A stretch of 62,129 nucleotides of DNA, the filler included, from Jimgerdemannia flammicorona (lineage: Eukaryota), in assembly GCA_003990765.1 (NCBI GenBank). It is 3 parts of 3 records of this genome, joined end to end, with 100 filler letters (N's around TTAATTAATTAA, not from the genome) between each part and the next. Parts side by side here need not be neighbours in the genome. Positions count along the whole stretch, not along the records: positions 20,756 to 41,398 come from RBNJ01001628.1; 2 more parts are not named here. One strand, given 5' to 3'. Position 1 is the first letter of the stretch. The number at the start of each line of letters is the position of its first letter. The position numbers and the translations under genes were made by a program. The notes below the pieces were generated by a model, which was not told the origin of the DNA, did no database searches, and saw only the letters and a program-made list of their open reading frames with translations. Below are positions 22,654-41,498 of this stretch, piece by piece.

Positions 22654-23819
22654 ATAATAAAATTCTATGCTCAACATTAAAATATAATGATCTATTGTAA
22701 TATATGGCATTCCAAATAAGTATTGGCGTTATATTCTTCGATTTTAGCAAATTCTTTATGCTCATTCAAACTATCGGCGATGATTTCTACTACGATGAAT
22801 GATCACCTGTCATCAGCCACTTGTAGTGAGATCGAGACCAAGCGATGTATATTTTCTGTTCATAATATTTCAAAAAGCATGCCGAGTGGGATGATTCATT
22901 GCATAAACCTTAGGATCGGCAGATCAATCACCCGAACATGATTTAAAATCTATACTAAATATCTCATTTGTATCACTTTTATAATGATATGAATATCACA
23001 AAATTATCCGACATTATTTGGTACTATGATTCTATACTTGAGAAAGTTTTCTTGGTCAAGATAAACTTAATGGATGTGCTCAAAAACTCAACACACAAAC
23101 ATTTAATATCTATGATAATAGTGATTTGAAAACCCAGCCAAGTTGCATATTTAGAATAGTTGGTGGAGGGGGAGGGGGAGGGCGAGTGTATTGCAAACAA
23201 TCATTGCTTGATTTACAGTAGCTCATTCCATATTTAGTGACACCAGCAAAGAAATCCACATTCTGCTGTACACCAAGTCCAAACGAATAGCTTTGAGAGC
23301 TGCTCTGAAGGTATATTTTACATATTAGCAATAATATTTCCCTTTCTATTATTTTATTCTATATCTGCCTCAATAATAGTATTACATTTTATTTGTTATT
23401 TATACCCGGCTATCTCTCCCAGCAATTTCGCTAATATATTGGCCAAGGTATTAATACATAAAAATGTCGAGTCTGTCATTTTTTCAATTCTGGCAGACAA
23501 CCAGCGGAATGGTCATGTGATCTTACTGTAAAATTTATATTGGGCACACGGTTATTATGGGCACACGATCAGATGATTAATTTTAGTCAAGGGATTTTAA
23601 AATCAATATGACTCACTTATCGATCTGCCAGTATATAATATTAGTTATTGCGAGCAATTCGGATATTTGACCACCATAATAACATCTGAATTCTAATAAT
23701 TATGAATTTAGAGTGTGCTTTAATGACAATATTCTATCCAATATTCAAGATAAAGTAAAGCCAAATTGTTTACAGAAGACTGTGTAAGAGAGAGTAAACT
23801 TTGTTTTGCAGGATATAAT

Positions 23820-24052
23820 ATTTGACGCATAAAAATGCTAGACTCGACATTTTTATGCGTCAAATTTCAATAATCATGTGATAACATCATTGAACCAATC
23901 AAATATTAACGCATAAAAATGCTAGACCCGACATTTTTATGCATCAAATTTCAATAATCATGTGATAACATCATTGAACCAATCGAATATTAACGCATAA
24001 AAATGCTAGACTCGACATTTTTATGCGTCAAATTTTTAATAATCATGTGATT
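23820..24052. repeat. 84-bp tandem repeat (about 2.7 units), each unit containing the island palindrome
   Basis: AAAAATGCTAGA recurs at 23831, 23915, 23999; first copy has perfect 18-bp arms ATTTGACGCATAAAAATG/CATTTTTATGCGTCAAAT around CTAGACTCGA. Confidence 0.93.
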
Positions 24053-24117
24053 TAATATTGTTAAACACGAAGCATAAAATTGATTTCGGTGCATTAAATT
24101 TTTGTATTCTGTATACC

Positions 24118-24999
24118 ATGAGTGAAATTACATTTGACCCCACCCACGCCTATGCTATTGTCATTGGTACAGGCACAAATAAGCATGGCGAAATCTCGAG
24201 AAATTACGAATCGACGATAAACGATGCAATATGCATCAAAAATATTCTTATCCAAATATGCAAATATTCAGAGAGCCAAGTCGAACTTCTTGTTGGCAAA
24301 CAGGCTACATATGAAGCTATAGAAACAGCGTTCGTCAACACCCGAAAACGCATCGAAAAAAACAACGATGATAATGCAATGGTCGTCGTTTTCTTTTCTG
24401 GCCATGGAACACCGAAAAAACTATTCCCATTCGGAGGAAATAGGTTTATAGACGGAGATTTTGTGTATTGTAATATAACCTTGGCAACGAGAGTATTGTT
24501 GTTGATCAATGCGTGCTATTCTGGTAGTTTTATTCCCAACCTGTTTAGCGACCGTCAACGCCAACGACTTTCTCTTTATTACGGGGTTTCAATTATATCT
24601 GCTTCCAGATTAGAGGCCGAAACGGCATATTTATCCAAAGATAAATCGACAACATATAGTCCCTTCACGATAGGACTTGTACAAGCTTTTCGCGGTAAAA
24701 CAAACGCTGACAACGGATTGGTTTATGTGGCCGATCTCCACACACAGTGTGCAACATATGTTAGCGACATAACAAATGGTCATCAATTGCCACAGTTTGA
24801 CTTCATGGGGGAGAATTTTCCAGTCGGATATCACCAATACCCGTTGGATGAATTGGAATTATCACGCGATACTACACAGAAAATCACATCGACTGTACCT
24901 ATTGTAAACAATTATAATGGTTATGTCTATGTGAGTGGTATTAACATGCAGGGAGCTACATTTGGCCCAGGTGCTAATTTCTCTATTATCAATAATTAG
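24118..24999 (+). CDS. Caspase/metacaspase-like peptidase (C14 clan) with N/G-rich C-terminal tail
   Basis: AYAIVIG, TINDA, ATYEAI, VFFSGHG (catalytic His), LINACYSG (catalytic Cys), SPFT; first ATG at 24118. Confidence 0.88.
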   Translation: MSEITFDPTHAYAIVIGTGTNKHGEISRNYESTINDAICIKNILIQICKYSESQVELLVGKQATYEAIETAFVNTRKRIEKNNDDNAMVVVFFSGHGTPKKLFPFGGNRFIDGDFVYCNITLATRVLLLINACYSGSFIPNLFSDRQRQRLSLYYGVSIISASRLEAETAYLSKDKSTTYSPFTIGLVQAFRGKTNADNGLVYVADLHTQCATYVSDITNGHQLPQFDFMGENFPVGYHQYPLDELELSRDTTQKITSTVPIVNNYNGYVYVSGINMQGATFGPGANFSIINN

Positions 25000-25059
25000 A
25001 ACTCAATCGATACGTAGTGTGTGTGTTCAAATAAAGTATATTAAATAAATGTTTTAACG

Positions 25060-25731
25060 TGTATTTGGGCATATCACATTCCAAATTGAACATAATCAAA
25101 TAGTAAAACACCGGCATTATATTGTTTCTGAGTCTTCCAATTAATCAACAGTTTGAATTCGATGGTACCATTATAATATTCCAGTGGAATAGCTATTTTC
25201 TTTCGAAATGTGTACCATCGTTCGAATAAGAACTCGTGAGGAACAATAAATGCCTATATTGTATTACTTTGAGGAAATCCATGTTCGCTATTCATCTGAT
25301 AAAATATTTTTATTGATTTCAAATACTTTGTTCCACAACTTAGCAATTTTAACTGTAGTTCGAATCTATCGGCTTTGGAAGATCCTAGTGTGTATTCGTG
25401 GACAAATCTGTTGCGCGTTTGTGTTGGCGACAAACGGATAACCTTTTTAAATATAGAATCATCGTCGAATGTGCATACGGCATTTCTACGTTGTGGTAAT
25501 GTGGAAAACGAGCGATGGCATTGATAAATTGTAATGTATGCATTTTTCCAGTCGCGTACTGTTGTTGGGGCATATTAATGGAAAATCCAAACGCAGTTTT
25601 TGCATCCAGAACCATTCATCGGTCAAAAAGAAGGTAAATCCGTGATATGCCAGTGCCGCATGTATAATATCGTTTGGTGAGAGGCGATATAGAACATATG
25701 CCAGCAACTCGGTTGGTAAACTGAAAATCAT
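25060..25731 (-). pseudogene. F-box protein pseudogene
   Basis: N-terminal F-box SLPTELLAYVLYRLSPNDI...FW; the frame closes at 25486 and coding-like sequence continues with stops; 3' limit approximate. Confidence 0.6.
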
Positions 25732-25802
25732 TTTTTTTTCTTGTGGGGTATCACATTGTTAAAAAAAAAATCATTCTATATATGAAATTGTACACATCAT
25801 CA

Positions 25803-26624
25803 TCACAAACATTTTATTGGCTGTAACAATTTGTTCCATTCTCTGCGAGCATGGAGAGTATATGGGTGATTGTCCCCATATCTAATACAGAAGATGCAAT
25901 AAGCATATTTAAAATATTCAGATGCAAGCTCAACTTTACCCATGCACCAGCAAATCACGCCAAGACTAGTATAAGACTTGCCTGTTTCTTCATGCTCTGG
26001 TCCCAGATAGCGACTACGAATTCTTAGTCCGTATATGCAAAATTGCCGCGCTCTGTTGATATCGCCGAGTTTCTCATATATTATTCCCAGATTGTATGCG
26101 GCAGTTGCAATGTGCTGATAATCGATATTGAACGTTGGATCCAAAATTCTCATCACCCAACTATAACACTCTTTAGCAGTTTTGAAATTGCCCGAGTTCA
26201 TGTAGATCTTGGCAATCCTAAGCATCTTGATTGCCGTCTCTCGGTGGTTCTCTCCGAATATTTCAACGGTTTGGTTGTAGTCCTGCATGTCGCGACATAT
26301 GCTGTCCAGTGCAGCCAGATCTTTCTGGGATTGTATTGTGTCGGGATGGCTGGGTCCGAGGGTGGCGGCACAAGAACGGTATACCACGCTGTAGAACCTT
26401 TGCGCATTGCTATATTCGCCCAACTGTTCGTAACGATATGCCATATTGACGATCAAGCGCAGTGTGTGTGGATGTCGGGGTCCCAGCTTGAGGGAGAACG
26501 TCTCCAGCGTCTGTATAAACATGCAGTATGTGTACGTATATGAGTTGTTGGCAATAAAGTATCTAATGGTGGCCTTTCTCGACTGCCTCCCCAGCCTCCA
26601 CTCTTTGACGATGATGTCGGACAT
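25803..26624 (-). CDS. Tetratricopeptide-repeat protein (kinesin-light-chain/NLR-type TPRs)
   Basis: LGPRHPHTL, LGPSHPDT, FGENHRETA, LGPEHEETGKSY, YGDNHPYT repeat junctions; first ATG at 26624. Confidence 0.88.
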   Translation of the reverse strand: MSDIIVKEWRLGRQSRKATIRYFIANNSYTYTYCMFIQTLETFSLKLGPRHPHTLRLIVNMAYRYEQLGEYSNAQRFYSVVYRSCAATLGPSHPDTIQSQKDLAALDSICRDMQDYNQTVEIFGENHRETAIKMLRIAKIYMNSGNFKTAKECYSWVMRILDPTFNIDYQHIATAAYNLGIIYEKLGDINRARQFCIYGLRIRSRYLGPEHEETGKSYTSLGVICWCMGKVELASEYFKYAYCIFCIRYGDNHPYTLHARREWNKLLQPIKCL

Positions 26625-26664
26625 TGTCAATGAGACGAAAAAGTGTAACAGCAATTTTAACAAT

Positions 26665-27339
26665 CTATATAGTTAGCGCCTTTCTGTGAAACGATGCAGC
26701 AACACGGTGGTTTCCCTGCCTATTGTAGAGTGCAGCCAGATTGTCCCAGGCAGTTGCTGTCAGCAGATCCTCCTGCTCCAGCATCGCATCGCAAATCATG
26801 GCCATGTCAACATACAATGGAATTGCATCACTGTACAAATTTCGTCGCACGCAAATATTACCGAGATTTTCGATAGTTTGCACTGTGGATATATGGTTCA
26901 AACCTAAAATACGTTTGCGTATACACACTTCTCGTTTGTACATTTTTATAGCATCGTGTGTTTTATGCTGCATTTCATATATTTTCGCCAGATTGTGGCA
27001 TGATTGTGCAATGTGGATTGGCTCCAATGGTTCTTTGTATATCTCAAGTACCCATCTATAGAGAATTTCGGCATGGTTGTATTTGCGTCGATGTTCATAA
27101 ATTGTTGCCAAATTGCTTATCGAGCGAGTCATGTTCAGATAATCCAAATCGTCTTTGGATGCAATGTTGTTAAATATAGATATTGCCAGTTTGTACAGCA
27201 TTTTCGCATCGCCAAACCGCTCCTTACCATGATGTGACATGGCTAGATCATTCAATGCAATTGTCGCATCTCGCTTATCATGTGCTGTCAAGATTCGATC
27301 AATGGTGGTTGTTTCAATTTTATCAAAAAATTCAATCAT
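26665..27339 (-). CDS. Tetratricopeptide-repeat protein
   Basis: ALNDLA, SISNLATIY...AEILY, SCHNLAKIY, LGLNHIST, AWDNLAALYNRQG. Confidence 0.85.
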   Translation of the reverse strand: MIEFFDKIETTTIDRILTAHDKRDATIALNDLAMSHHGKERFGDAKMLYKLAISIFNNIASKDDLDYLNMTRSISNLATIYEHRRKYNHAEILYRWVLEIYKEPLEPIHIAQSCHNLAKIYEMQHKTHDAIKMYKREVCIRKRILGLNHISTVQTIENLGNICVRRNLYSDAIPLYVDMAMICDAMLEQEDLLTATAWDNLAALYNRQGNHRVAASFHRKALTI

Positions 27340-27384
27340 TATTTTATATGACGAGAAGAGGTTGATAACAAAGTATTTAACGTG

Positions 27385-27386
<2 letters not shown>

Positions 27387-27421
<35 letters not shown>
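27387..27421. repeat. (TA)n microsatellite
   Basis: About 17 TA units upstream of the TPR gene. Confidence 0.9.
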
Positions 27422-27423
<2 letters not shown>

Positions 27424-27745
27424 GCAGAATTCAAGCTAGTGCCTATGATAGAGTAGCTTGCAACGTATATATAACATCACTTTCTATAATATGCACTAAG
27501 TAGTATGATGTGGTGGAGCAATAAATAATGAACTGTTGTTGGATCGGGTACATTTAATACATACTAGACTCGACATTTTATTAACTACACAATACTTATA
27601 ACGTTATTGTATGAGAATATAACTATTTTACTAAACACTATTTCTAAATACAAAATTCTATATGATATCTAGTATTCAGAGTTATTGTCTGTTGAATTAA
27701 CACCATGGTCTTATGACTAATCATCCATTTGGGCTGTACCCAATC

Positions 27746-27797
27746 AAAATTCGACGCATAAAAATGCCGAGTTCGACATTTTTATGCGTCGAATTTT
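27746..27797. repeat. Island palindrome (21-bp perfect arms, 10-bp core CCGAGTTCGA)
   Basis: AAAATTCGACGCATAAAAATG / CATTTTTATGCGTCGAATTTT. Confidence 0.93.
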
Positions 27798-27848
27798 ACA
27801 TCATTTCAAGTGTGGCCTCATCGAATATATTTAGTAAGATTGCGATTA

Positions 27849-27900
27849 AAAATTTGACGCATAAAAATGTCAAACTCGACATTTTTATGCGTCAAATTTT
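27849..27900. repeat. Island palindrome (21-bp perfect arms, core TCAAACTCGA)
   Basis: AAAATTTGACGCATAAAAATG / CATTTTTATGCGTCAAATTTT. Confidence 0.93.
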
Positions 27901-28176
27901 AATTGGTGATCACAAGTATTGAAGGTAAGAAAAGTTGATCAGTATCAAAGTGTCAGACTCGATATTTTATACGTTAAATCTCAGATTTTTTATGAGTAGA
28001 TATAATTTACAATATAGGTGTAGTCATACAATCAAACGTAACATATTTATAAAAACGCATATTATCTCAACTCAACGCTCCACACTTATTCGTTCTTGGT
28101 GATCAATCATATATTGTCGATTTTTGAAAACGTTTACAACTCTATAATATGAATTTGACTATCTAGCATTCTCGGG

Positions 28177-28521
28177 CTAACTCATCCAACAAGGAGGCGG
28201 ATCTTCTCCAACAACATTTTCGAGTGACAAGATCTCTATATTGTTATCCATCGTAATACACTTTAATTTTTTTATGTAGTCATCCGGGACGTTTCTGAAT
28301 ATAGTATATGCCCATTTGGCATAATGAAATATATCAATTGCGGCATTTCTGGACTCAACACTCGGGATTGCGGCAAATCGAGTGATAATTATCTCGGCCT
28401 TTTCTTCAAACGGCATTGCATTCCCTAACTTTATAGCCATTTCATTGATCTCTCTACCAATATTGCGATATTTGATTATATTGTCACCTACTGTATTCTG
28501 AACTATGTCTCTGATATACAT
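28177..28521 (-). CDS. Small hypothetical helical protein sharing a motif with the LTR-encoded ORFs
   Basis: 114-aa ORF; YRNIGREI and AKWAYTIFRNVP..YIKKL...ILS. Confidence 0.6.
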   Translation of the reverse strand: MYIRDIVQNTVGDNIIKYRNIGREINEMAIKLGNAMPFEEKAEIIITRFAAIPSVESRNAAIDIFHYAKWAYTIFRNVPDDYIKKLKCITMDNNIEILSLENVVGEDPPPCWMS

Positions 28522-28623
28522 GGTAAGATCAATGTGAGACAGCGAGTGTAGTGGCGAACTCGTAAAAGTTGTTGTATTTATATAAACAATCTAGCTTATT
28601 GTGGAATGAATAAAATTTTATTT

Positions 28624-30141
28624 TCAATGCAATGCGTCATATTCCTCAAAGTATGTGCTGTGATATCCCGGACATCCCCAAAATCGCTGCCACACGTTGC
28701 CTGTGTACAGGAACGCGTATATCTCTTTATACCCACGATGATCCGAATCAAATACACATCCCCGTTTTTTAAACAGCCTTTCAACGAGAATTTTAAAATC
28801 GGGATCGATTTGGCCTTTGGAAATGCTAATTTTTATCGAGTCGATTTGGCTCCATGCATCGAGGTGTTTGATTCCTTTGCCCACGCACGGCGATTCAATG
28901 TATTCGAGCTGCAGTTCGCGCAGACGTGTGCTCGTTGACGTGCAGACAGCAATAAATGCATTGTCCACATTGATGTAGTAAAGCTTGAGATTGGTCAGCA
29001 GCTGGCATTTCGTAATAAACTCGCACATCACGGACGATTTCACATTCTGCTGGACATTGACCGAATTGAGCGTGAGGGTGGCGAGGTAGGGGCATCGGTC
29101 GGCGATCGTCCGAAAAAATATATCGCTAAACGGGCCACCCTTGTGCTTGATCGATATGCTGCATATGTTGTATCCCAAACATCGCGGCAGGTCGCGTGGC
29201 AGGGCGCCAACGAGTCGGACATGCTGCAAGTGTGGCAGAATGAAATTACGATCGGAACAACGCCACTGATGTTGTCTATTTTGGATCTCCAATCGCGTTA
29301 GATTCGTGCACTCGGCTGTAATTGCCGCAACGAGATTGTCGTTGAACAGGTTTGAACAATCGTCGATGTACAGCGTGCGGAGTCGCAACCCCATGGTCCG
29401 AAGTGCTTGCACCAGATGTGCTGGTTCAATGAATGATATGGATGCCAATACCAGATGGCTGAGTTTTGGCAATGCGAGCACGGTCGAAACAAGGGTGCGT
29501 GATCGTTGTGCGAGAAACGATAGTCGGACTGTTCGTAGGGTAGGATGTAATTTCAGTTCTACTGGACCAGGATCTCCTTCGATACACAGTTCGGATAAAT
29601 TGGCACAGCTTGCAAGCATGCTACACCCGATTGCACATCTTGCAAGCATGTTACACTCGATTGCACAGTGGTTATTGGCTATGGTTGGATAATCGCGTCG
29701 ATCGTAGACCAGCGTCAAATTTTTAATTTGATTCCAGCTGATTCGGTCGGTTATGATTTGCAGAGCCGAACAATTGCATGTTGTAAAGAGGCCCGGAGTG
29801 TGGATGCTGTTTGCACTCATCACCAAACGGACGGATTGTACATACTGCAAACCGGGTAACCCATCTCTATTGCGCTGTATGAACCGTGCCAAATGCGCCA
29901 CATCTCGTGGAAGTCCATTTCGGCCATTTAATTTCAGATGCAGTGTGTTCCATATTACCAGCAACGCACATCGGCGCAATAGCGTCGAAACTTTGGAACA
30001 TGGAATGAGCGACGATCGTCTATTAGAGTTTTGAAAATATAGATAGAATATGTCTTCTGTAGGTTGATGATCATTTAGATACTCGGTTCGTTTAATGATT
30101 TGAAATATTTTTATCCATATTTCTGGAGGTAGTGACACCAT
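28624..30141 (-). CDS. F-box/leucine-rich-repeat protein
   Basis: SLPPEIWIKIF...CSKVS..LRR.AL..IW F-box; Cys-containing LRRs (CANLSELCI, CTNLTRLEI, CPYLATLTL, CQLLTNLKL). Confidence 0.9.
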   Translation of the reverse strand: MVSLPPEIWIKIFQIIKRTEYLNDHQPTEDIFYLYFQNSNRRSSLIPCSKVSTLLRRCALLVIWNTLHLKLNGRNGLPRDVAHLARFIQRNRDGLPGLQYVQSVRLVMSANSIHTPGLFTTCNCSALQIITDRISWNQIKNLTLVYDRRDYPTIANNHCAIECNMLARCAIGCSMLASCANLSELCIEGDPGPVELKLHPTLRTVRLSFLAQRSRTLVSTVLALPKLSHLVLASISFIEPAHLVQALRTMGLRLRTLYIDDCSNLFNDNLVAAITAECTNLTRLEIQNRQHQWRCSDRNFILPHLQHVRLVGALPRDLPRCLGYNICSISIKHKGGPFSDIFFRTIADRCPYLATLTLNSVNVQQNVKSSVMCEFITKCQLLTNLKLYYINVDNAFIAVCTSTSTRLRELQLEYIESPCVGKGIKHLDAWSQIDSIKISISKGQIDPDFKILVERLFKKRGCVFDSDHRGYKEIYAFLYTGNVWQRFWGCPGYHSTYFEEYDALH

Positions 30142-30365
30142 GATTTAAAAATTGTACAACTTTACATGTTTTTTTCCAAAAATTAAATCAATATTTCTTC
30201 ATACTCATCATTTCATCATAAGTTTCGGTGATCACGTGTATATGTATTGTAAAAAATTATATTGGGCACACGATGAAATATTTTGGGCACACATGAAATG
30301 TGTACCACAAAGAACTAATATATAATTTAACAACGCGTGGACTGTGCCAACATGTCCTCGCAAAC

Positions 30366-32132
30366 ATGTCTCCACACACTAGACGAAACACTACTATTAA
30401 AAAGTCTAGATTACACCATCACGGCCGTCATCTACTCAACATAATAGGTGATTATGGCAGATATAGCGAAATGACTGTGTTGGCGACCCAAGAGTTAGCC
30501 AAGGAGTACACCAGACTTGGACAATACGAGAAAGCACTCAACTTGTACAAAAAAATTAGCGCTATTCAAAAAAAGCTACCAGCCCAGTCAAAGTACCCAC
30601 ACCGATCGCGGAATCTGGAGAGGATTGCCGAGATGCTTTGCAATCTGAATCGACATGCGGAATCGAGAGAGTATTATATACAGGCTCTCAATATACAGCA
30701 AGCGAATCTGTGTGTCGATGATACACAGGTTATCCAGACCATGCTGATGATAGCAACAAGCTACTGCTACGAGAGGCGATTTGACGCGGGTGTCGACCTG
30801 TGCAAACGCATACTGGACATGCAGACACCATCGGACTCGCTGAGGGCAAGAACTCTCATGACTCTGGGCGTCATGTACTCTGGATGGGACGAGCATTTGG
30901 ACGAGTCTGAAACTTGTTATCGCGAAGCAGCCAACATCTTTGATGCGCTAGGCGAACCGCTATCGAGAGAGGTGTTTGCTCGATTGATGGGCGACTTGAG
31001 CTTCCGACAGAAGCGGTATATCGATGCCGAAACGCATTACACCGTTTTGCGGAATGTTGCATCAGATAAAGGTATGGCCCTGCTCCGGCTTTGCATTATC
31101 TATCGCGAATTAAATCTGTTTGCCGACGGGGAGAAGGCGGGGGGCGAGGCGATTGTGGAACTTGCCGACACTGTCCATGCAACGGACGCCTATATGCAGC
31201 TGGGATTGTTGCATCTCGAATGGCGCAACTTGGACAAGGCGGAGGAATTCTTGGCCGTTGCAGACATGAAATGGGACGTTACACGGCAGCGGCGAACAGA
31301 CATTCCGGTACAATATCTCACAGACGTGTACATCGAGCGTGGTAACTTTGCGAAAGCAGCAGAACTGCAAATTCGACAGAGTTCAATCTACGCCGATTGG
31401 AAAATGGCAGACGAGGCTGAACAGTGTTTGGTGCGAGCGGCAGAATTACTGCGAGCGGCAGAATTGCTGCGAGCGGCCGATTCAGCGAGATTAGACATAG
31501 CCGTATTGTGGATGGACTTGGGTAAAATTCGATTCAAGCGAAATCCGCTGGACAGATTCGTCGAGACGTGCTTCGACACAGGATTTTCCATAGCAAAGGA
31601 TTTGGCGGATGTTAATTTTAACGAAATTGTGGCATTTGTCAACGGCCTACTCGTATTTTACGCGCAATATGTCAAATATGCGCAGAAAACGTGGACAATA
31701 TTAATGGATCTATATCAAATCGCGATTAGTCGCGGTAATCGAAGATGTGAAATGCACGCTGTTCGAAGAGTAGTTGATTTTCTTATGAAATATCAGCGCT
31801 ATCATATCGCCGAATGTTGGTGTTGCCAACTAGTTGAAATTCAGAAATGTGTCGAAGGGTATGAACACGAAAACACAATCAATGTGTTAATCGTCCTGGC
31901 GACGATATATCAGCGCCTAGATCTGAATGGGACCGCATTGTGGTGTTGGCGAGAAATAGATGTTATGCAAAGTTCGAAACACATGATTGAAAAATTAGAA
32001 CGTAAGAAATCCGAGTTGTGGTGTTGGCGGGATATAGATGTTATGCAAAGTCCAAAACACCTGATTAAAAAATTAGAACGTAGGGAAATGGAGTTGATGG
32101 CGCTGTCATTTCCGAAATTCTTTTGTATCTAG
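30366..32132 (+). CDS. Tetratricopeptide-repeat protein
   Basis: LAKEYTRLGQYEKALNLY, YYIQALNIQ, LGLLHLEWRNLDKAEEF, EGYEHENTI; internal duplications RAAELL x2 and a 26-aa C-terminal repeat. Confidence 0.85.
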   Translation: MSPHTRRNTTIKKSRLHHHGRHLLNIIGDYGRYSEMTVLATQELAKEYTRLGQYEKALNLYKKISAIQKKLPAQSKYPHRSRNLERIAEMLCNLNRHAESREYYIQALNIQQANLCVDDTQVIQTMLMIATSYCYERRFDAGVDLCKRILDMQTPSDSLRARTLMTLGVMYSGWDEHLDESETCYREAANIFDALGEPLSREVFARLMGDLSFRQKRYIDAETHYTVLRNVASDKGMALLRLCIIYRELNLFADGEKAGGEAIVELADTVHATDAYMQLGLLHLEWRNLDKAEEFLAVADMKWDVTRQRRTDIPVQYLTDVYIERGNFAKAAELQIRQSSIYADWKMADEAEQCLVRAAELLRAAELLRAADSARLDIAVLWMDLGKIRFKRNPLDRFVETCFDTGFSIAKDLADVNFNEIVAFVNGLLVFYAQYVKYAQKTWTILMDLYQIAISRGNRRCEMHAVRRVVDFLMKYQRYHIAECWCCQLVEIQKCVEGYEHENTINVLIVLATIYQRLDLNGTALWCWREIDVMQSSKHMIEKLERKKSELWCWRDIDVMQSPKHLIKKLERREMELMALSFPKFFCI

Positions 32133-33268
32133 TTTATTAATCCGAGGTATTTGGATAGTTGCATAGAATACATATCGGTCCAACACGAGATTGTATTTGG
32201 ATTTATACTTGGATATATGTGGTATTGCAAATTCTGCTGTTCACTCAGTCTCTCTAGCAACGTTGTGGTTTTGCTCCATTGACGTACGCCCTCCAACTCC
32301 AAACATTGCAGATTTATAAAGGCGCTAATATCATTCACATCATCTCCAGTAATTGCGAGATTATCGGACGATATTCGCAACTCTTGTAAATTGTATGCTT
32401 TGGATGCACAACTGCGGAGAAAATAATCATCGATTCCGCCAATGTCGTAGAACGATATTTTGGTTAGCCGTGTACATTTATCAATTAATTGGCAGATTGT
32501 ACGTCTGTTTGTACGCGAACTATCAAGTGCAGTGATTGAGATGGACGATAGTTTGGGACAGCTATTCGAAATGGCATCAATCAGATCGTCGATAGGACAA
32601 TTTCTACACTGTGTCAGATGTATAGATTGTAAATGCTGACCTCGATCGTTGATCAGACTACAAAGATCGGATGAATTATCGAATCGAATATATCCAAAAT
32701 CTATAGCTCGAGGCACCACATTGGCCAACGCCGATTTGAAATTATCTATCGGGGTATAAGTTGAATAAATGTGCCTTATACGTAGATATTGCAACGATCT
32801 TGAAAAAGTTGGTAATGTAATTCTCGGAGATTCCATCAAGTAGAATAAATTGAAACTGATGAGATTATTTGCACCGAAAAAGAACTCAATGGTCCTGTAT
32901 ATGGATAGATATGGAATTTCACTCAAAATTCTAACGTGTTTGAGCTCATCCATCGGTAGACATTTTAATATACTATCAACGTTTGAAATTTCTTGTGGAT
33001 CATCACCATAGATCTTGATGTCCACGTCTCTGGTAAACTCGAGTAGAGATTTCCATTCATGAAATTTTGAAAATTTTATAGCATTGCAATCTACGGTAAT
33101 AGTCATCATAGTTTCTACCATTTCGATCTCGATTTGATTCCATATCAATGGTGTTGTGAGTGTATACCATGATCGGCATACTCTTGAACAGTCAGCCAAA
33201 CTTTTCTGATCGTAAAGAATGTCAAAAATCAATAGTAACACTTCGTTGGAAAGTGTGTATATACACAT
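32129..33268 (-). CDS. F-box/leucine-rich-repeat protein
   Basis: TLSNEVLLLIFDIL...CSRVCRSWY...PLIW F-box; LRRs CPKLSSISI, CTRLTKISF, NLQELRI. Confidence 0.9.
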   Translation of the reverse strand: MCIYTLSNEVLLLIFDILYDQKSLADCSRVCRSWYTLTTPLIWNQIEIEMVETMMTITVDCNAIKFSKFHEWKSLLEFTRDVDIKIYGDDPQEISNVDSILKCLPMDELKHVRILSEIPYLSIYRTIEFFFGANNLISFNLFYLMESPRITLPTFSRSLQYLRIRHIYSTYTPIDNFKSALANVVPRAIDFGYIRFDNSSDLCSLINDRGQHLQSIHLTQCRNCPIDDLIDAISNSCPKLSSISITALDSSRTNRRTICQLIDKCTRLTKISFYDIGGIDDYFLRSCASKAYNLQELRISSDNLAITGDDVNDISAFINLQCLELEGVRQWSKTTTLLERLSEQQNLQYHIYPSINPNTISCWTDMYSMQLSKYLGLIN

Positions 33269-33357
33269 AATAATGTATTGTATTCTATATGTGTGGGAAA
33301 TGTTGTATTTATGTCAACTTTCGGCTAATTAATAATCCGTGCTGTTGCCCAATAATA

Positions 33358-33403
33358 TTTTGACGCATAAAAATGCTAGACTCGACATTTTTATGCGTTA
33401 AAT
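33358..33403. repeat. Island palindrome (core CTAGACTCGA)
   Basis: TTTTGACGCATAAAAATG-CTAGACTCGA-CATTTTTATGCGTTAAAT. Confidence 0.9.
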
Positions 33404-33536
33404 TTCTTATCATCGTCATCAGCCCATCACCCCCCCCCCTCCCCCACCCAATGCTGTCTGCCACAAATCGCTTTATAAGTCTGAACGTATTTTATACAAA
33501 TTTATTTGAGATAATATGAAGAGCCAGGATATATAA

Positions 33537-34623
33537 CTATATCAAGGATACATTTGAAAAAACTGACAAATCCAAACAAACTGGCTGGAATTCGTGCAGC
33601 TTGCAATAAGGATGATGATAATTCCTCAGCTGTGATTCACCACGATCGATAGCATCGCTAATCCTATGAATCAGCTCAGGTATATTGTATATACCTAGCG
33701 ATCCATCGCGTGCTCGTTCTTGCAATATGCGCAAAACGTCTATATATTTTTCAATGTTAATAATCATTTGAGTGTTGATCGTCTGCCATTTCCTATTCAC
33801 ACTTTCTATTTCTTGAATCTGTGAATTTTCACGGCTTGATCCACCACGCCATGTATCCAGCGAATTTAAAATTTGGTTGACTAGCTGGATCTTGATGACA
33901 TTTCCAAACATGAACTTTTGGATTCTGCGGTGCGGAAGATTGTGTCGACGAATAACCTCCTCATTATCAATCGATTTTTGTAAAGCTGTGAGATATTCTT
34001 GAAGTTGCCAGTGTCTATTTTAAAACAATTAACTATTAGTTTTTTTCCGGTTATTTAAAATACCTTTTTGAAAAAATATATACTCACAGAATATAACGGT
34101 TTGAAACCTTTTCCACAATCCTTTCCAACGTTCTTTCCATATCGGCCACATAGTTATTCGATACAATATCGGGTAAGTTAACCAGATCGCGGTCAGTTAG
34201 TACAAAGCGCATGTGTTTGACAGATGCTATGAAGAGGGTGATATCGGCGCTGGTGGATGCCTGGAATATATGACTCTGTCTATCAATCTCATCGATCGTG
34301 TCTTTAATGATGATCAACAATCCAACAAGAGTTCCCTTTCCACCGATACTGAAAGATTCAGTGGAATTTATGATGGAAAACAGGTCATATATGCCCATTC
34401 GCAGGTTTCTAAACTCTTTTCGCATTGCCGGTTCATTGTATCCGCTCACCGACAGATATGCCAACTGTGTTGACACGAGTCTATCTATATGGAACTCGGT
34501 GATATCACTGGACTGTGCAGTTCCATCAATAGACTTTAAATCGGTCGACTTGTAGTGCGCGCTGGATATGAAAAAGATCGTGCAAGACACGATAAAAATC
34601 GCTAATAACATGCGTCGTATCAT
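33537..34623 (-). CDS. Predicted secreted or membrane-anchored helical protein, two exons (337 aa)
   Basis: Hydrophobic N-terminus MLLAIFIVSCTIFFISSA; intron 34015..34087 (GTGAGT...ACTAAT...TAG) joins ORFs 34084..34623 and 33537..33911 in frame. Confidence 0.72.
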
Positions 34624-34731
34624 GTTTGCTCCAGCGCAATAATCACAAGGTACCGTATTTTATTATGGAAATCATGTGCACACTGTTCACACGGTTTTAG
34701 ACACAGATAATTTATTATGGTAATACAGGTA

Positions 34732-35409
34732 CTACTTCTTCTTCCGTTTACAGCTATCTGGAACATCATTATTATGAGGTCGTTTTTTAGAAGTGGTGGT
34801 GGTGGAGGAGGAGGAGGAGGGGGGGTGTGGTGTGTTTTTTGGTTGGGTAGAACGTACAGGGTTTCTTAACAACTGCTCAACACCTTTGGACAGCGATGCA
34901 AATTTTGTATCAGTTGATGGTGTTGTCAGCTCATCGAACCTATCTTCATCTGATGAATGGTAACTAACAACAAGGTATAGAATGTTATCAGCAGATGTAT
35001 ATTGAAATGTTCTTTTAATCAATCCGCCGTCTTTAAAATCGTAAACGTCGTCAGTGAGTGAGCCAACTATACGATAATCTTTATTCTGCTTACACTTTCT
35101 ATACTTGGATTCTTTTTTTCGAACACATCTACCCTTATTTTCGGGATAAAGACGTGTCGTTGTCTGGCGATAGTAGCGAATGCCAGAGGTGAATCTGCGT
35201 GAGGGACTCCAAAATTGGTCATCGCGTATTCGCTGTGATCTATCTTTAACAATGACGAATATAGCGCCGTGTTCAACCACCAATCGATCTTTGTTGGCAA
35301 TTGTTTCTGGATTTACTGGGCGAAGTAAGTCGCTTGTGCAAGCAAGTATAAGAGTCAATGCATCTGCCCGCGATTCAAGCTTGCCAGTGTATGTGCGATT
35401 GATTGACAT
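34732..35409 (-). CDS. Divergent Gti1/Pac2 (WOPR) family transcription factor
   Basis: TYTGKLESRADAL...AC, GAIFV, WSPSR, YYRQ, GSLTDDVYDFKDGGLIKRT, VVSYH, L.TPS; basic C-terminal KRKKK. Confidence 0.85.
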   Translation of the reverse strand: MSINRTYTGKLESRADALTLILACTSDLLRPVNPETIANKDRLVVEHGAIFVIVKDRSQRIRDDQFWSPSRRFTSGIRYYRQTTTRLYPENKGRCVRKKESKYRKCKQNKDYRIVGSLTDDVYDFKDGGLIKRTFQYTSADNILYLVVSYHSSDEDRFDELTTPSTDTKFASLSKGVEQLLRNPVRSTQPKNTPHPPSSSSSTTTTSKKRPHNNDVPDSCKRKKK

Positions 35410-35512
35410 GATTTAACACAAACGTCCATTTTTTTAAGCGTTGGTTGGTTTTATATTCGTCTAATAAGCTTAGTCATATGATTATTTTAATGTGGTACAC
35501 AGTACCCCAATC

Positions 35513-35564
35513 AAAATTTGACGCATAAAAATGTCGAGTCTAGCATTTTTATGCGTCAAATTTT
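35513..35564. repeat. Island palindrome, reversed core (TCGAGTCTAG)
   Basis: 21-bp perfect arms AAAATTTGACGCATAAAAATG / CATTTTTATGCGTCAAATTTT. Confidence 0.93.
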
Positions 35565-35649
35565 AATTGGTGTGCATATACTGATTATCGAGATAAGATT
35601 GATATGGAAATAGTACAGAATGGAATTAGATTCGGCCGATGTCACCGAA

Positions 35650-36024
35650 TCATCTAAATAAGTTATATTTGATAAAACGTATACACGGTTCTGCAGCGAC
35701 AATACAAAGAGCAAGAAATAGAATTAATATCACAAGCAATACAATAATACATAATTCAGTATAAATGGGTTTTGGAACAAATCCAATCAAAACACTGAAT
35801 ATGTTAAATCTACACTGAAAGTGATTCCATAATTGCAATGCTGTGATGTTGTTTACAATACGCTCACAATAATTGTAGATAAGTTTCGTACATCGGATCC
35901 ACAGTACGATAATGGCAAGTGTTGCAATATACCAAAATATATGTCCACCAAACAGATCATCAAATAACTGGTAATACTATTCGACCAGGGATACAAACTC
36001 CATCAAGATAGTATTTTTAAACAT
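35650..36024 (-). pseudogene. Small membrane protein, nonsense-interrupted paralogue of 37501..37830
   Basis: MFKNTILMEFVSLVE*YYQL...IFWYIATLAIIVLWIRC...LQLWNHFQCRFNIFSVLIGFVP; TAG where the paralogue has TGG. Confidence 0.65.
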
Positions 36025-36640
36025 GGGTGAAACTGATATTAGAAACTGTTTCGCAATTATATATATAATTAGAATCAATTTCAACAATGACATCATACAT
36101 GATATTTTTTTAAACATAAGCGTGTGCCCGTATTGTAAAATCGTGTGCCCAATATATATACATTGCGCGCACACACTTGCTCACCATTCCCTCTCCCTGA
36201 TAGCATTCCATGCCATTTCAGTTACAACCTGTAATAAAAGGAAAATGAAATTGCTAGGGGAGATAGCCAGACACAATATAGAATAAAATAAATAAAGAGA
36301 AAAATATTATTGTCAAGACAGATAAAATATTATTATAAACAAGTTGGTGAGAAAATTGATGCATAAAAATCTTTTAATCTTGATTACTTGAAATTTGGTC
36401 CACCCAAAATTTATGTTGGGCATACGGTTTATAATATGGGCACACAAATAAAGTTCTCCAGTAGAGGGGGGGGGGGCAGCGATAATCTGAACATATGATA
36501 ATAAATTTAATATCTAAAAAATATGCATGCGATGATGACTACATATTACTGGACTCATCTGATTGTATACAGAGATTATCAGAAATGAGTAAGATCATAT
36601 ATAAACCGCTGGCACAGTCAAACCTGCCACAAAACCCTCA

Positions 36641-37102
36641 ATGACCATTCTACCCAAAACCCACACAAAACCCTCAATGACCATTCTACTCAAAAAAACC
36701 CAACTGCTCTCGGATTCCTGGTCTGCATTGGTGCTTAAGATATCACCCTACCATCAAACTATCCTCGCTAGTGATTCCCAAAGAGCAGCCAAAATAAAGG
36801 AAGAATGGGTGACGTTGCGATATTACACAACACAACAGAACCTTTCACACTTCCACAAGAAGGTCCATCCGAAGTACACTGGAACAGAAAACCCGTGTCT
36901 GTGTGAAGATATGGACATTTTTCATGAAATCCTTTATGGTGCCAGCTGGGAACAAGAATTCGCTGATTATCAGGAAAGGCTGCACAGCAATAGCCGCCAT
37001 TGGTTAGTCTACTACAATGAATACATCAATGAATTGGGACGAAAGGAGTTACAAAGAAGTAATGATAGATATCTATTCGATGGTGATGATGATGAGGATT
37101 AG
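36641..37102 (+). CDS. Hypothetical protein with acidic C-terminus
   Basis: 153-aa ORF, TATA-like TATATAAA upstream, 36-bp duplication at the start, AATAAA downstream. Confidence 0.6.
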   Translation: MTILPKTHTKPSMTILLKKTQLLSDSWSALVLKISPYHQTILASDSQRAAKIKEEWVTLRYYTTQQNLSHFHKKVHPKYTGTENPCLCEDMDIFHEILYGASWEQEFADYQERLHSNSRHWLVYYNEYINELGRKELQRSNDRYLFDGDDDED

Positions 37103-37418
37103 GAAATAATGTCATGGCATAATTATATAATCCAATAATAGATGCTAAATAAACTTAAGATATATAAATTAGCTATCATGTATTAGAATAATTAACTCGC
37201 CACTATACTACTCGAGATCAAATATAAACAAATTAGTACCAATTGGAATATTTGCAAAGATGCAGGCGAGCGAGCATATGTATGGGTAGAGTTGAGATCT
37301 TCGTGGAAGATATAGTTTTGATTATCCGAAGTGCATAATCGCGATGGGTGTGCATGTGAATCTTTTAAGATGCACATTACACAACCATGTACGATCTTAC
37401 TAAATATATTCACCAGGT

Positions 37419-37470
37419 AAAATTCGGCGCATAAAAATGTCGAGTCTAGCATTTTTAAGCGCCAAATTGT
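37419..37470. repeat. Island palindrome, reversed core, with compensatory GGCGC/GCGCC arm change
   Basis: AAAATTCGGCGCATAAAAATG-TCGAGTCTAG-CATTTTTAAGCGCCAAATT. Confidence 0.88.
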
Positions 37471-37500
37471 GATTGACGGGCATCTCTTGAGATAAGATTG

Positions 37501-37830
37501 TTAATTAAATAAGTTGTGTTTGATAAAATGTATACTCATTTCTGCAAAGTACGAGAAATAGAAATTACTATGTGACAATTTGGTACAGATAGGGCTTGGA
37601 ACAAATCCAATCAAAACACTGAATATGTTAAATCTACACTGAAAGTAATTCCACAATTGCAATGCGATGCTGATGTTTACAATGCACTCGCAACAGGTGT
37701 AGATACGTTTTATACATCGGATCCATAGTACAATGATGACAAGTGTTGCAGTATACCAAAATATATGTATACTATACTGATCATCGTATAGCTGGTAATA
37801 CCATTTGACTAGGGATACAAACTCCATCAA
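37501..37830 (-). CDS. Small predicted membrane protein
   Basis: About 109-aa hydrophobic ORF; paralogue at 35650..36024. Confidence 0.55.
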   Translation of the reverse strand: MMEFVSLVKWYYQLYDDQYSIHIFWYTATLVIIVLWIRCIKRIYTCCECIVNISIALQLWNYFQCRFNIFSVLIGFVPSPICTKLSHSNFYFSYFAEMSIHFIKHNLFN

Positions 37831-38200
37831 GATAGTATTTTTGAATATGTGTGAGACCGATGTTGTATACTAAATGGGTGGAATCAATTTCACACAATAC
37901 TTTTTTAAATGAAGTCGGTAATTATAGATGGATTGTGTGCCCATATTGTAAAATCGTGTGCCCAATATATTTAAATCTACATATATTGCACGCACACTCC
38001 CCCCCCCCCCAAACCAACCCATCGAAGAGAATACCACACTGATTATTTCTATAGCAGTTCTAGAGCCTACAACTCCTTTATCATTTGCATTCCGCATTGA
38101 CCACACATATATTTTTCTGTAGTAATGGCTCTATAAAATTGCGATATATATATATATAATTAGTATAAGAACTAAATAAATATTAATCAGCCAAGTATTA

Positions 38201-39575
38201 TTACCTCGAGTGTGGTTGCTTTGAGATTGGCATTGGGCGTGTAAATGTATCGCGTGGTCTCTGACTGGCATCATATGCATTTGTCAGATATCGCAAGATA
38301 GTAGGAGTATCAAAATCCAAGCTCCATCCTCCCCATTCACATATCTCCCCTATTGATTTGCGCTGTCCTGCATAGTAATGCCAGTACTGACACCCACCAC
38401 GTCGAAATGAATGTGTATCATACAGGTCTGACTTTACAATTCCAATTGCCTGTAGATCCTTTCGGAATCGATTTCGGAAGGATTTGTAGCTTACTCTCTG
38501 GGTTACATCGAGATCTTGGTTATCATTTCTGGCAACAAAGAAATATCCGTCGGTATCACCGCGGTAGTACAACCATCTCATATATGCTCGTATAGGGCAA
38601 AGATACTTATTATAATTATTGCGCCATAATATAAAGGGCTTGATTCCTGTAAGATAATAGATGAATTAGAAGCATCGCAGATACATTTGCTTTACGGACA
38701 TTCTGAGAGACAGCCTACCTCCGCTCTGTGCCGTTTTACGAAAGTTCAATGTTAATGTGATATATCTCTTTCGAAACTCGATGTGTGTCCATTGAATATT
38801 CAGTACTTCGTCACCACGCAGAAGACACAGATATGCAAACATGTATGCACAGTATTGGCGGGCACCAATAACTCCTTCTTGTTGGCAGTATGTATACAAT
38901 TCGTCCATATCATTGGGTGTCAAAGCACGCACCGACTCTGCCGCCTCCCCACGCCGCGCCTTACGCTGTCGCAAACTGCGTATATACCGTCGCACATCCT
39001 CTGACTGCGTTGGATTTCCAACCCATTTTTGCTGGGTTTCATCATATTCAAATATCGCCTTCCTCCTGCCATTGATATTATAATACCGGGTAATAGCTGA
39101 TTGTATTGCCAATGCAGTTGAAATCTGCATTGTATACGCGAACAACAGTAATAAATATGTGATCATTACCAAAGTTCGAGATACAAAATTATATTTACCG
39201 AATGTCCTAGACATCCAATAGGACTACCATGCTTATCGGCGGTATCTCTAGGTTCGCACTGTTTATATATATATGCACAGATATCCTTTGGTGTCATTTC
39301 GGTAACAATCGTAGGATCAAATTCTTTGTTGTAGAAATGTTTATATCGCTGGCATTGAAAACGGTAGTATCCATTCCATGTGCTATCAGATTGACAAATA
39401 AACATATATTAATATTATCGCCAATACCGTATAGATTGTATATATACACACACCTATTATAAACCTTTTGGGTGCCTGCCGTGATGTCATTCTCTTGTTC
39501 CATTGCGGCATAGTGTCCATAATCTATTTTGCCATTAATAGGTTTGGAATTGGTAGCATCATTTGGTATGACCAT
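38201..39575 (-). CDS. Tyrosine recombinase (Crypton-like DNA breaking-rejoining enzyme), four exons, 385 aa, apparently intact
   Basis: GT-AG introns 39383..39453, 39125..39198, 38647..38718 give one open frame (1158 nt) with LLRGDEV (R), FRKT (K), LCPIRAY, THSFRRGG (HxxR), WGGW, ILRY (Y). Confidence 0.9.
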
Positions 39576-39614
39576 TATCTGAATAATAATAATATATAGT
39601 ATATTTGGTCACAT

Positions 39615-41019
39615 TTAATATATATCAGCGATGTCTTTTGCCTGTCGTTTTACTGCATTTCTGTTCTCTATTTTAGATATCAACCGCTTATATGTAATTG
39701 TCTCAGTTTCATCAAAATATTCAGCATAAAGACCAGGTAGTCCACCATATATTTTGTATTCTCTAAACAGTTTCTACAAAATGAAATCAAGCAATATTAA
39801 TTATAATTCAGACCAACATAACCCCATTATATATAAATAGTAACTATCATACCTCACGCTCTAGTACTTTATTACGGATGCGCTTCCAATTCTTTGTTTT
39901 ATACCATTTATCTCGGAGCGCCTGGATAGTTCCATCCTCAACCTGCATGATCGCATCTTCAATATTTTTAATAGCTGGCACCCTGGGGCGCATGTCAACT
40001 GATGGCAACGTTATCACAGACCCGATACTCGATGATGTCCAGGGTTTGCCCTCACAACGTTCACACTCACAATCAGAGTTAGATTTATCAGAACCTCGTT
40101 CGAACCATTTTTTGGCTTCTGCATATCCACGATCCAATGAATTGAATTTGAGTACATATTCATGTCGTCGATGTTTTGATGTCCCGATATTCTCCCAACG
40201 TTCATCCATAGGTACTGAAAAGAAGTCAAAAAGGCTCTCTAACAAATCCTGTTTTTTCAATGATTTTCGTAGTTTTGAAGCCCCCAATGGCAATTGTTTG
40301 TTGATCTCGCCTACAATTCGTTTGAGTGTTACAATAGAAGGGTTTGCACGTACCGTATCAAGATCGATACCATATTTTTTAGCCTTATTTTGCGACTTGG
40401 TCGTTGTACGTATGCGTTTGTAGCGACGTTGGATATCAGATGTAGGCAACTTGTGTTTTCGATTGGTGTTATCTCCATCCACAACTTCCTCAATATCTTC
40501 CCCGGCCTCCTCCGAATCACCAATATCTTCATCGGTCTCTTCAGAATCATCAGTATCGTTGTCTTCCTCATTGTCATCAATCTCTTCTGGAATCTTAGTA
40601 TATTTGTCATCATCATCATCATCTTCCCCGCTGTCCTCACCATTTTTAATGTTCGCTTTCACACCTCCAGTATCCTTTGATATAACGGTAGGGTGCTGGA
40701 CAATGATATGAAGGTTCCTTTTGGTGGGCTGGCTAGCAAAGTGCTCATAAATATCATCTTGCACTGACAACATCTCGCCACATAGCACATTCTTGATATC
40801 GATATCGGGGTCAGTGTTGATTGCAGTCAGAGGGATGCTGACCTTCCAAAGTATGAGTTCGTTGACAATAATCTGATCATATCGCTTTTGCAACCGTGTC
40901 TTAATTAACTCTCTGAGCTTGTCGATGCTTTCAGTCTTGGGTATATTGACATGGAACGTATATATGGATGGAGGGGTGTTTCTGTGTATCAGACAGTTGA
41001 GTGTTATAATATTGACCAT
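39615..41019 (-). CDS. Crinkler (CRN) N-terminal ubiquitin-like domain protein with acidic linker, two exons (441 aa)
   Basis: ITLNCLI...FHVNI...SIDKLRELIK...LILWKVSIP...LHIIVQHP is the fungal CRN-N pattern; intron 39774..39852 (GTATGA...TTGTAG) extends the frame to a stop at 39615. Confidence 0.85.
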
Positions 41020-41099
41020 TTTGTGTATATAAATAAGGTGACGCTGACAATGTTTATATATACAAGTTGGGGCGCACAGCCATGTGAACAAAATTTATT

Positions 41100-41271
41100 T
41101 TGCCCACCCTCAACATAACTCGCGACGTTCCCCACCCTCGACAAATCGAAATTCTGCCCACCCTCGACAAAATTTTAGGCTCCCCCATCCGGCCTTGCAA
41201 AATTGCACTATCAGATGCACCCCGGCCTTGAGGGTAACACCAGATCGGGCCTTGAAATTGCACTATCAGGG
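41100..41271. repeat. Short direct-repeat cluster, putative element terminus
   Basis: CCCACCCTC x3 (two followed by GACAAA), GGCCTTG x3, AAATTGCACTATCAG x2. Confidence 0.7.
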
Positions 41272-41398: not shown

Positions 41399-41498
41399 NN
41401 NNNNNNNNNNNNNNNNNNNNNNNNNNNNNNNNNNNNNNNNNNTTAATTAATTAANNNNNNNNNNNNNNNNNNNNNNNNNNNNNNNNNNNNNNNNNNNN
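41399..41498. other. Assembly gap with artificial TTAATTAATTAA spacer
   Basis: N run with linker. Confidence 0.97.

Follow-up and report, generated by a model that had tools for sequence, protein, structure and literature searches.

We analyzed a 62,129-nt stretch of the genome of Jimgerdemannia flammicorona (GenBank assembly GCA_003990765.1), called the window throughout, and found that one of its contigs carries a family of short palindromic repeats between its genes. The central 34 bp of these repeats, two 12-bp inverted arms around a 10-bp centre, are under constraint, and the same contig encodes a tyrosine recombinase related to Cre. We give roughly even credence to the reading that the palindromes are a locally amplified repeat kept as a promoter-proximal protein-binding site. 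A preliminary description of this DNA had instead proposed an integron-like system, in which the repeats serve as recombination sites for the neighboring enzyme. The layout is not integron-like, and we regard recombination sites of that enzyme as a possible but less likely identity of the palindromes.

The window is composed of three contigs of 20,655, 20,643, and 20,631 bp, which are size-sorted and are not neighbors. They are joined by artificial linkers (44N+TTAATTAATTAA+44N) at 20656-20755 and 41399-41498, and adjacency across the linkers is meaningless. Every palindrome copy is held by the middle piece (20756-41398), a J. flammicorona contig of 20,643 bp (RBNJ01001628.1). This single 20.6-kb contig, together with protein databases, forms the evidence base for the palindromes, and the other 41 kb of the window, two further contigs of the same genome, served as a comparison in which no copy was found.

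Searching with the 17-nt arm and allowing up to two mismatches gave 16 matches where 0.02 were expected, a number reached in none of 100 shuffles. The matches form eight inverted pairs with a 10-nt gap, which bears out the earlier observation of a motif repeated between genes. Eight full copies and three or four decayed ones span 23.4-37.5 kb, all between open reading frames (ORFs), as listed here.
23821..23864, plus strand: palindrome copy, first of three tandem units of 84 bp each, core CTAGACTCGA, 17-nt arms perfect
23905..23948, plus strand: palindrome copy, second tandem unit, core CTAGACCCGA
23989..24032, plus strand: palindrome copy, third tandem unit, 85 bp upstream of the ATG (24118) of a caspase-like ORF
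27750..27793, minus strand: palindrome copy with nearly symmetric centre CCGAGTTCGA and the same T-to-C change in both arms
27853..27896, plus strand: palindrome copy with nearly symmetric centre TCAAACTCGA, forming an inverted pair with the copy at 27750, 103 bp apart
33359..33402, plus strand: palindrome copy, 90 bp upstream of the ATG of an F-box ORF (32129-33268, minus strand)
35517..35560, minus strand: palindrome copy with the best extended arms (27 nt), 107 bp upstream of the Gti1/Pac2 ATG (34732-35409, minus strand)
37423..37466, minus strand: palindrome copy, paralogue of 35517-35560, 34 bp past the stop of ORF108
23450..23493, minus strand: decayed copy, core 8/10, one good arm, 47 bp from a GGGCACAC doublet
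27555..27590, plus strand: decayed copy, core 10/10, both arms decayed
27946..27985, plus strand: half copy, core and one arm
36355..36400, strand not assigned: weak relic, one arm with three mismatches and no partner arm, 16 bp from a GGGCACAC doublet

An extra half-site at 24072-24082 follows the third tandem unit. The inverted-arm layout given in the preliminary description stands, although its length of 46-52 bp was too short: the arms of the best copies are up to 27 nt long (CCAATCAAAATTTGACGCATAAAAATG), for 64 bp in total, over which mean column identity among the copies is 88%. Likewise, the degenerate or half copies reported at 23450, 27555, and 27946 are real, whereas the one at 36355 is weak. 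The centre is identical in five of the eight full copies, differs by one base in another, and is strongly changed and nearly symmetric in the remaining two. These two, at 27750 and 27853, read approximately ATG-TCGA-AC-TCGA-CAT, a near-perfect palindrome about a 2-nt centre, while the other six carry CTAG instead of TCGA on one side; the asymmetric 10-bp core described earlier thus holds for six of the eight copies. The asymmetric half AGACTCGACATTTTTAT has 10 matches (0.18 expected), six on one strand and four on the other, and the half copy at 27946, judged by eye, is one more plus-orientation site beyond these. Orientation is therefore mixed, contrary to the earlier view of the sites as directional. 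Among 20 half-site matches, 16 fall in full palindromes, three in decayed or partial copies, and one in another contig; because solitary half-sites are rare, the unit is a dimeric site. No copy lies inside any ORF of the middle contig that has a Pfam family. An 86-aa ATG ORF at 37192-37452 (no family tested) has its start within the last full copy, and we take it as spurious. The statement that the motif is confined to the intergenic DNA of this contig holds in this sense, although the word "only" rests on 20.6 kb and the window comprises three contigs.

Substitutions are distributed unevenly along the eight full copies. The 12-bp inner arms (CGCATAAAAATG) deviate from the consensus in 2 of 192 cells, the outer 4 nt of the arms in 8 of 64, the 10-nt centre in 9 of 80, and positions farther out in 45 of 176. 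Eight of the nine deviations in the centre fall in its first six positions (8/48). The difference between the inner arms (2/192) and the outer arms plus centre (17/144) gives a Fisher P of 3.7e-5. Moreover, the pair 35517/37423 differs at 1 of 34 positions in the central 34 bp, against 20% substitutions in the duplicated flanks (binomial P = 0.004). The central 34 bp, comprising the 12-bp arms and the 10-bp centre, are under constraint, and the uneven substitutions together with the single change in the duplicated pair indicate that the centre is functional or is being homogenized. Conservation peaks in the middle of the palindrome and is lowest at its ends, the reverse of the pattern of terminal repeats recognized by a transposase.

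The copies are not independent and represent about five loci. An 84-bp tandem array of 2.8 units (94% matches) carries three of them, and four more copies lie within 430 bp in a local cluster (27555-27985). A segmental duplication of about 700 bp (35440-36190 versus 37340-38010) carries a palindrome, the small ORF108, and a GGGCACAC doublet, and its homology continues on both sides of the palindrome, with no end at the site core. The flanks of different loci cannot be aligned, with a mean column identity of 39% in an alignment that takes in the palindromes and the locally duplicated copies.

Three of the full copies lie upstream of a start codon at similar distances, namely those 85, 90, and 107 bp from the ATGs of the caspase-like, F-box, and Gti1/Pac2 ORFs, and the cluster at 27.7 kb lies 410 bp upstream of a TPR gene. 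Four loci are also downstream of a same-strand ORF, at 34-320 bp, and the copy at 37423 sits between two convergent ORFs. A second intergenic motif, TGGGCACAC, occurs 11 times in the window against 0.31 expected, with 8 of the 11 matches in the middle contig. Five doublets of this motif, spaced 17-21 bp start to start and in two cases with one mismatched member, are present in the middle contig only.
23541-23566, plus strand: GGGCACAC doublet
30263-30292, plus strand: GGGCACAC doublet
36122-36151, minus strand: GGGCACAC doublet
36417-36445, plus strand: GGGCACAC doublet
37935-37964, minus strand: GGGCACAC doublet

All five doublets are directed at the downstream gene start, and four of them are within 73-195 bp of that ATG. 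The doublets are a candidate shared promoter element of the gene cluster. With this motif beside the palindromes, the intergenic regions of the contig have more than one conserved module in common, and shared cis-elements are a property of the cluster.

In the reading that we prefer, the palindromes would form one family of short repeats, about 64 bp at the longest, with a conserved 34-bp centre. The family would have multiplied locally by three routes, namely tandem duplication, segmental duplication, and short-patch insertion into intergenic DNA. Selection would keep the 12-bp inner arms and leave the outer arms, with part of the centre, free to drift, from which we infer that the 34-bp centre is the recognition site of a protein that binds as a symmetric dimer. 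The placement of copies about 100 bp upstream of starts, the arrays, and the presence of a second directional motif make a cis-regulatory role the most likely one. Such a promoter-proximal site would be akin to the short inverted-repeat elements that other fungi carry in the promoters of their effector genes. The recombinase on the same contig, which is Crypton-like, related to Cre, and represented in the genome by two or more diverged copies, may be there by coincidence, and the mitochondrial look-alikes in metagenome contigs described below provide a precedent for the spread of short palindromes free of a recombinase. If the palindromes are no more than a local regulatory or selfish repeat, they represent a common phenomenon in well-characterized form, and their main value would be to trace the spread of intergenic modules through a rapidly evolving gene cluster in an ectomycorrhizal mucoromycote.

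Several observations weigh against this reading. Transcription-factor sites of eukaryotes are rarely near-perfect palindromes of 34-64 bp, and a simple tyrosine-recombinase site has precisely this arrangement of inverted 12-bp arms flanking an off-symmetric centre. A Cre-like enzyme is, in addition, encoded 0.6-15 kb from the palindromes. The regularity of the distances to the ATG is post hoc and comes from three loci with short intergenic regions, the copy at 37423 is upstream of no gene, and the orientation of the palindromes relative to the neighboring gene is inconsistent. The lack of copies in the other 41 kb fits a local function and a link to the recombinase equally.

The recombinase gene lies near the end of the contig.
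38201..39575, minus strand: tyrosine recombinase gene, exons 39454-39575, 39199-39382, 38719-39124, and 38201-38646

The four exons are joined by GT-AG introns, and a deposited paralogue (P0001) confirms this splice pattern. With a possible short fifth exon near 38070-38130, the predicted protein has roughly 430-450 residues. Exon 3 matches the Pfam family Phage_integrase with 35.3 bits (cut-off 27.1). Arg103 and Lys130 in exon 3 and His79, Arg82, Trp108, and Tyr120 in exon 4 supply the catalytic residues, and all six align to the invariant columns of the family and to Cre. In the alignment of 22 longer family members, the Arg, Lys, His, Trp, and Tyr positions are invariant or nearly so. By its predicted exons the gene is intact, in agreement with the preliminary description.

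The family is small: searching 1.84 billion sequences with exon 4 returned only 260 cluster representatives at E <= 0.001. The ten representatives that were looked up include chytrid, aphelid, and agaricomycete proteins. The aphelid Amoeboaphelidium has identical family members on two to three contigs, and the family is thus probably mobile. The family profile matches the Cre catalytic domain with E = 7.3e-11, and all 17 of its 17 PDB matches are Cre or Tre. Neither the 22 family members nor the exons of the window matched DUF3504, DUF3435, or GCR1_C at E <= 0.01, and no locus of the family was found in viral contigs. On these alignments, the enzyme is an intact Cre-like recombinase, probably of Crypton type, and belongs to no named Crypton group (PMC3212892, PMC13465315). 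A second copy in the same genome, on an 8,444-bp contig, is identical at 402 of 485 aligned positions and likewise lies directly downstream of a Crinkler-domain gene.

We consider it possible, though on balance doubtful, that the palindromes are lox-like sites of this enzyme. In that case two recombinase monomers would occupy the 12-bp arms, with strand exchange taking place in the centre, so that same-orientation sites would lead to excision and re-insertion of gene blocks and opposed sites to their inversion. The intact gene with its six aligned catalytic residues, the match of its family to Cre, and the probable mobility of that family all favor the proposal. As in loxP/Cre, FRT/Flp, and rox/Dre, the arms are conserved, inverted, and about 12-13 bp long, the centre is off-symmetric in six of the eight copies, and 34 bp (12+10+12) are conserved. 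The two inverted arms, here 12 bp, fall in the 11-14 bp range of simple Cre/Flp-type sites, and the enzyme aligns with Cre through the Arg, the His-x-x-Arg, the Trp, and the Tyr. The centre stays intact even in the decayed copy at 27555, the copies show no target-site duplication (TSD), as would be expected from recombinase-mediated insertion, and every copy is on the contig of the enzyme. However, the link between site and enzyme consists of their sharing one 20.6-kb contig of a transposon-rich genome, in which a Crypton-type gene near anything has a high prior probability. The cleavage points of known tyrosine recombinases are 6-8 bp apart, and the centre of 10 bp is longer; its first six positions vary like the outer arms, less than the far flanks, and two nearly symmetric copies with private centres could not pair with the others. 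The pair 35517/37423 stems from a duplication whose homology crosses the site, and the promoter-proximal positions beside a second cis-motif also speak against recombination. Tandem triplets with a spacing of 84 bp would be unusual for active sites and, like the arms of up to 27 nt in some copies and the many intergenic locations, set the palindromes apart from loxP, FRT, and rox. Furthermore, the Cryptons described in the available portions of two reports have no inverted sites and only direct repeats of 4-6 bp (PMC3212892, PMC13465315). If the palindromes were the cognate sites of the Cre-like enzyme, this eukaryotic recombinase family would have its first described natural site, and enzyme and site would be a possible new orthogonal pair. 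They would also give the first indication that gene blocks of a fungal chromosome are shuffled in a programmed way.

It is quite improbable that the palindromes are a tiny non-autonomous foldback element resembling a miniature inverted-repeat transposable element (MITE). Such an element would depend for its movement on a transposase whose gene lies elsewhere, would do nothing for the host, and would have no connection with the recombinase. The 88% identity over 64 bp points to copies related by descent, and the flanks that fail to align between loci indicate that some copies reached their positions as short units. Weak outer inverted repeats (caatctta ... taagattg) are visible by eye beside some copies, and intergenic, promoter-near positions are typical insertion sites. 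Short inverted-repeat elements (MITEs) have been reported in effector promoters of Fusarium, in the part of that study available (PMC13465315). On the other hand, no TSD common to the copies was found at 234 combinations of arm length and duplication length, apart from the AATT of the palindrome itself, a comparison of low power since the ends of the element are undefined. That check, which the preliminary description had named as a sign of a MITE, gave no shared duplication. No transposase was recognizable among the scanned middle-contig ORFs of at least 100 aa, conservation is highest at the centre rather than at the ends, and the two other contigs of the window hold no copy. Very improbable, in our judgment, is a transcribed RNA hairpin acting as a 3'-end or termination signal or as a small-RNA precursor. 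Predicted hairpins are strong in four of the six full copies folded (z-scores of -6.4 to -7.8) and weaker in two, with -3.8 for copy 33358 and -2.1 for copy 37419 (33359 and 37423 in the list above). The stability of the two decayed copies folded, including 36355, was not distinguishable from that of shuffles. The loci that lie 34-320 bp downstream of a same-strand ORF would suit such a signal, but arm covariation was no better than in shuffled controls, 151 of 500 of which reached its score, and we therefore make no claim of hairpin selection. Several copies also carry unpaired changes, the sequence itself is conserved beyond pairing, and a scan of the whole window matched no Rfam family.

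Comparing the contig with integrons, we find a tyrosine recombinase at one end of gene blocks that are separated by inverted repeats capable of forming hairpins. The claim that the sites divide the genes into blocks of one to four agrees with our ORF scan, which places genes on both strands of the blocks. The defining features differ. The attC sites of integrons vary in sequence and share an imperfect folded structure with extrahelical bases, whereas the sites here are near-identical perfect palindromes with perfect stems. Along an integron array attC sites share one orientation, whereas orientation is mixed here. Integron cassettes are single, mostly promoterless genes in one orientation that are expressed from a common promoter near the integrase, whereas the blocks here hold one to four genes on both strands, some with introns, and several have their own promoter-like GGGCACAC doublets 73-195 bp upstream. 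Neither an attI site nor a common promoter is evident in the middle contig, and the site nearest to the recombinase, about 600 bp beyond its 3' end, is an ordinary copy. As site diversity, uniform orientation, and single promoterless cassettes are all missing, the comparison with integrons breaks down on the very features that define them.

The inverted-repeat elements in effector promoters of Fusarium oxysporum are the mimp elements. The palindromes resemble them in being short inverted repeats that precede effector- or conflict-type genes by about 100 bp, and the gene cluster here also encodes a Gti1/Pac2-family regulator. They differ in being much shorter, in showing no TSD, and in being conserved at the centre rather than at the ends. 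Like Cryptons, the locus has an intron-containing tyrosine recombinase that stands alone, no reverse transcriptase lying nearby. The gene exists in at least two diverged copies, and its relatives in an aphelid are multi-copy. It differs from them in that the 22 family members have neither the GCR1_C domain of CryptonF nor the DUF3504 domain of CryptonA/Glomhopper, and in its inverted repeats, since Cryptons as described in the accessible text of two papers lack these and have only 4-6-bp direct repeats (PMC3212892, PMC13465315). The portions of the published literature on Cryptons, tyrosine recombinases, and Jimgerdemannia available to us describe no such sites and no fungal integron-like system, and the supplements of these papers could hold element annotations.

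Beyond the recombinase, the contig ends in a Crinkler gene and a fragment of 18S rRNA.
39615..41019, minus strand: Crinkler N-terminal-domain gene, directly upstream of the recombinase
41097..41269, plus strand: short direct repeats, three GCCCACCCTCGACAAA-like and two AAATTGCACTATCAG, found nowhere else in the window
41272..41398, plus strand: 5'-truncated 18S rRNA, model positions 99-227, 127 bp, at the contig end

Splicing of a 75-nt GT-AG intron at 39579-39653 would drop the Crinkler stop and join the Crinkler and recombinase reading frames into one. Both paralogues are deposited as models of Crinkler-recombinase fusions, with the model at this locus (P0161) named a hypothetical protein. 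The Crinkler domain was present in none of the 12 other recombinase-family members scanned. The Crinkler-recombinase is a candidate fused protein, as the gene models have it. The 18S fragment was detected when a short stretch was searched alone, the scan of the whole window having given nothing. At 41271/41272, unique DNA passes abruptly into 18S at model position 99, and the remainder of the 18S gene was not found at the start of the third contig. A length of 127 nt is a common assembler word length, and the 127-nt overlap suggests a true graph link rather than a chimera. The contig end may represent an insertion into the ribosomal DNA (rDNA) array or the truncated edge of the array.

The arrangement recalls Starships, giant cargo-carrying elements, as the recombinase-bearing gene is the first one met when reading inward from the rDNA junction, at a distance of 252 bp, and is followed by about 20 kb of accessory-type genes. 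It differs in its enzyme, which is no DUF3435 captain, in its host, a mucoromycote whereas Starships belong to Pezizomycotina, and in showing a single junction. Some Starships target 5S rDNA, according to the part of the report available (PMC11162782). We regard it as rather unlikely that the middle contig is the recombinase-proximal end of a cargo-carrying tyrosine-recombinase element from an early-diverging fungus, inserted in 18S at 98/99, in which the Crinkler-linked Cre-like enzyme would be the "captain" and the palindromes internal lox-like sites that move conflict-type genes. The blocks inverted, lost, or gained would then be those of the caspase-like, TPR, F-box, and Gti1/Pac2 genes, and the contig would represent a naturally occurring system of recombination among multiple sites on a eukaryotic chromosome. 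A giant-virus or plasmid origin of the middle contig was considered and is unsupported, given its fungal-type genes, the GT-AG introns of the recombinase and Crinkler genes, and its nuclear 18S end.

The ORFs between the palindrome copies encode a caspase-like protein (Peptidase_C14), two TPR proteins, two F-box-like proteins and an F-box relic, the Gti1/Pac2 protein, and several products without a family. The relic is a short ORF at 25486-25731 with an F-box-like start (MIFSLPTELLAYVLYRL...), located between the caspase-like and TPR genes, and is probably what remains of a third F-box gene.

We also searched for the palindrome outside this genome. The exact motif, with 28 specified bases, had no match in metagenome contigs and none in viral contigs. 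A looser form with 22 specified bases gave 27 rows, or 26 metagenome loci, all with different flanks, and these were rejected as unrelated. Most of these loci have self-complementary centres (AAATTAATTT or AAATGCATTT), with other centres in five loci. The one contig checked carries nad5, cob with a GIY-YIG intron ORF, and nad1 and is a mitochondrial genome. A perfect 32-bp palindrome, GCATAAAAATGAAATTAATTTCATTTTTATGC, appears at intervals of ~3.8-4 kb along metagenome contigs that reach 49-54 kb. Its flanks are conserved, and it reads as a dispersed palindromic repeat of a mitochondrial genome. The 11-nt arm that it has in common with the window motif is there because the search pattern demanded it. 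A peptide from the open frame across a palindrome (window 35491-35610) gave no candidate in a protein collection, an uninformative result.

The remaining observations concern repeats across the three contigs. The middle contig starts with a 33-bp satellite, CGGGTGACGTATAATTCCGGGTCGGGTTAAAGA, which is common to its first part (20803-20989) and the interior of the third contig (41810-42072). The other two contigs together hold three reverse-transcriptase ORFs, in keeping with a transposon-rich genome. The first contig opens with a telomere repeat, (CCCTAA)13, and this region (window 1-14464) continues with three tandem units of about 5 kb, which are GC-rich (52-58%) and bounded by interstitial telomere repeats at 9471-9521 and 14390-14464. 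Two of the three units contain an RVT_1 reverse transcriptase ORF (960-2801 and 11979-13088), and the layout is that of a telomere-associated retroelement array. Diverged inverted matches (71-77%) with strong GC skew link 15781-18589 in the first contig to 48698-51407 in the third, and these are probably one repeat family in opposite orientations. In the third contig, a 1.5-kb direct repeat (44094-45633 versus 59272-60877) has 86-96% identity, near-identical A26-27 tails occur at 54331-54376 and 58989-59035, each after AGGGCAGTCCAAG.GACTAT, and an RVT_1 fragment lies at 54710-55150. The direct repeat, the A-tails, and the RVT_1 fragment are retroelement remains.

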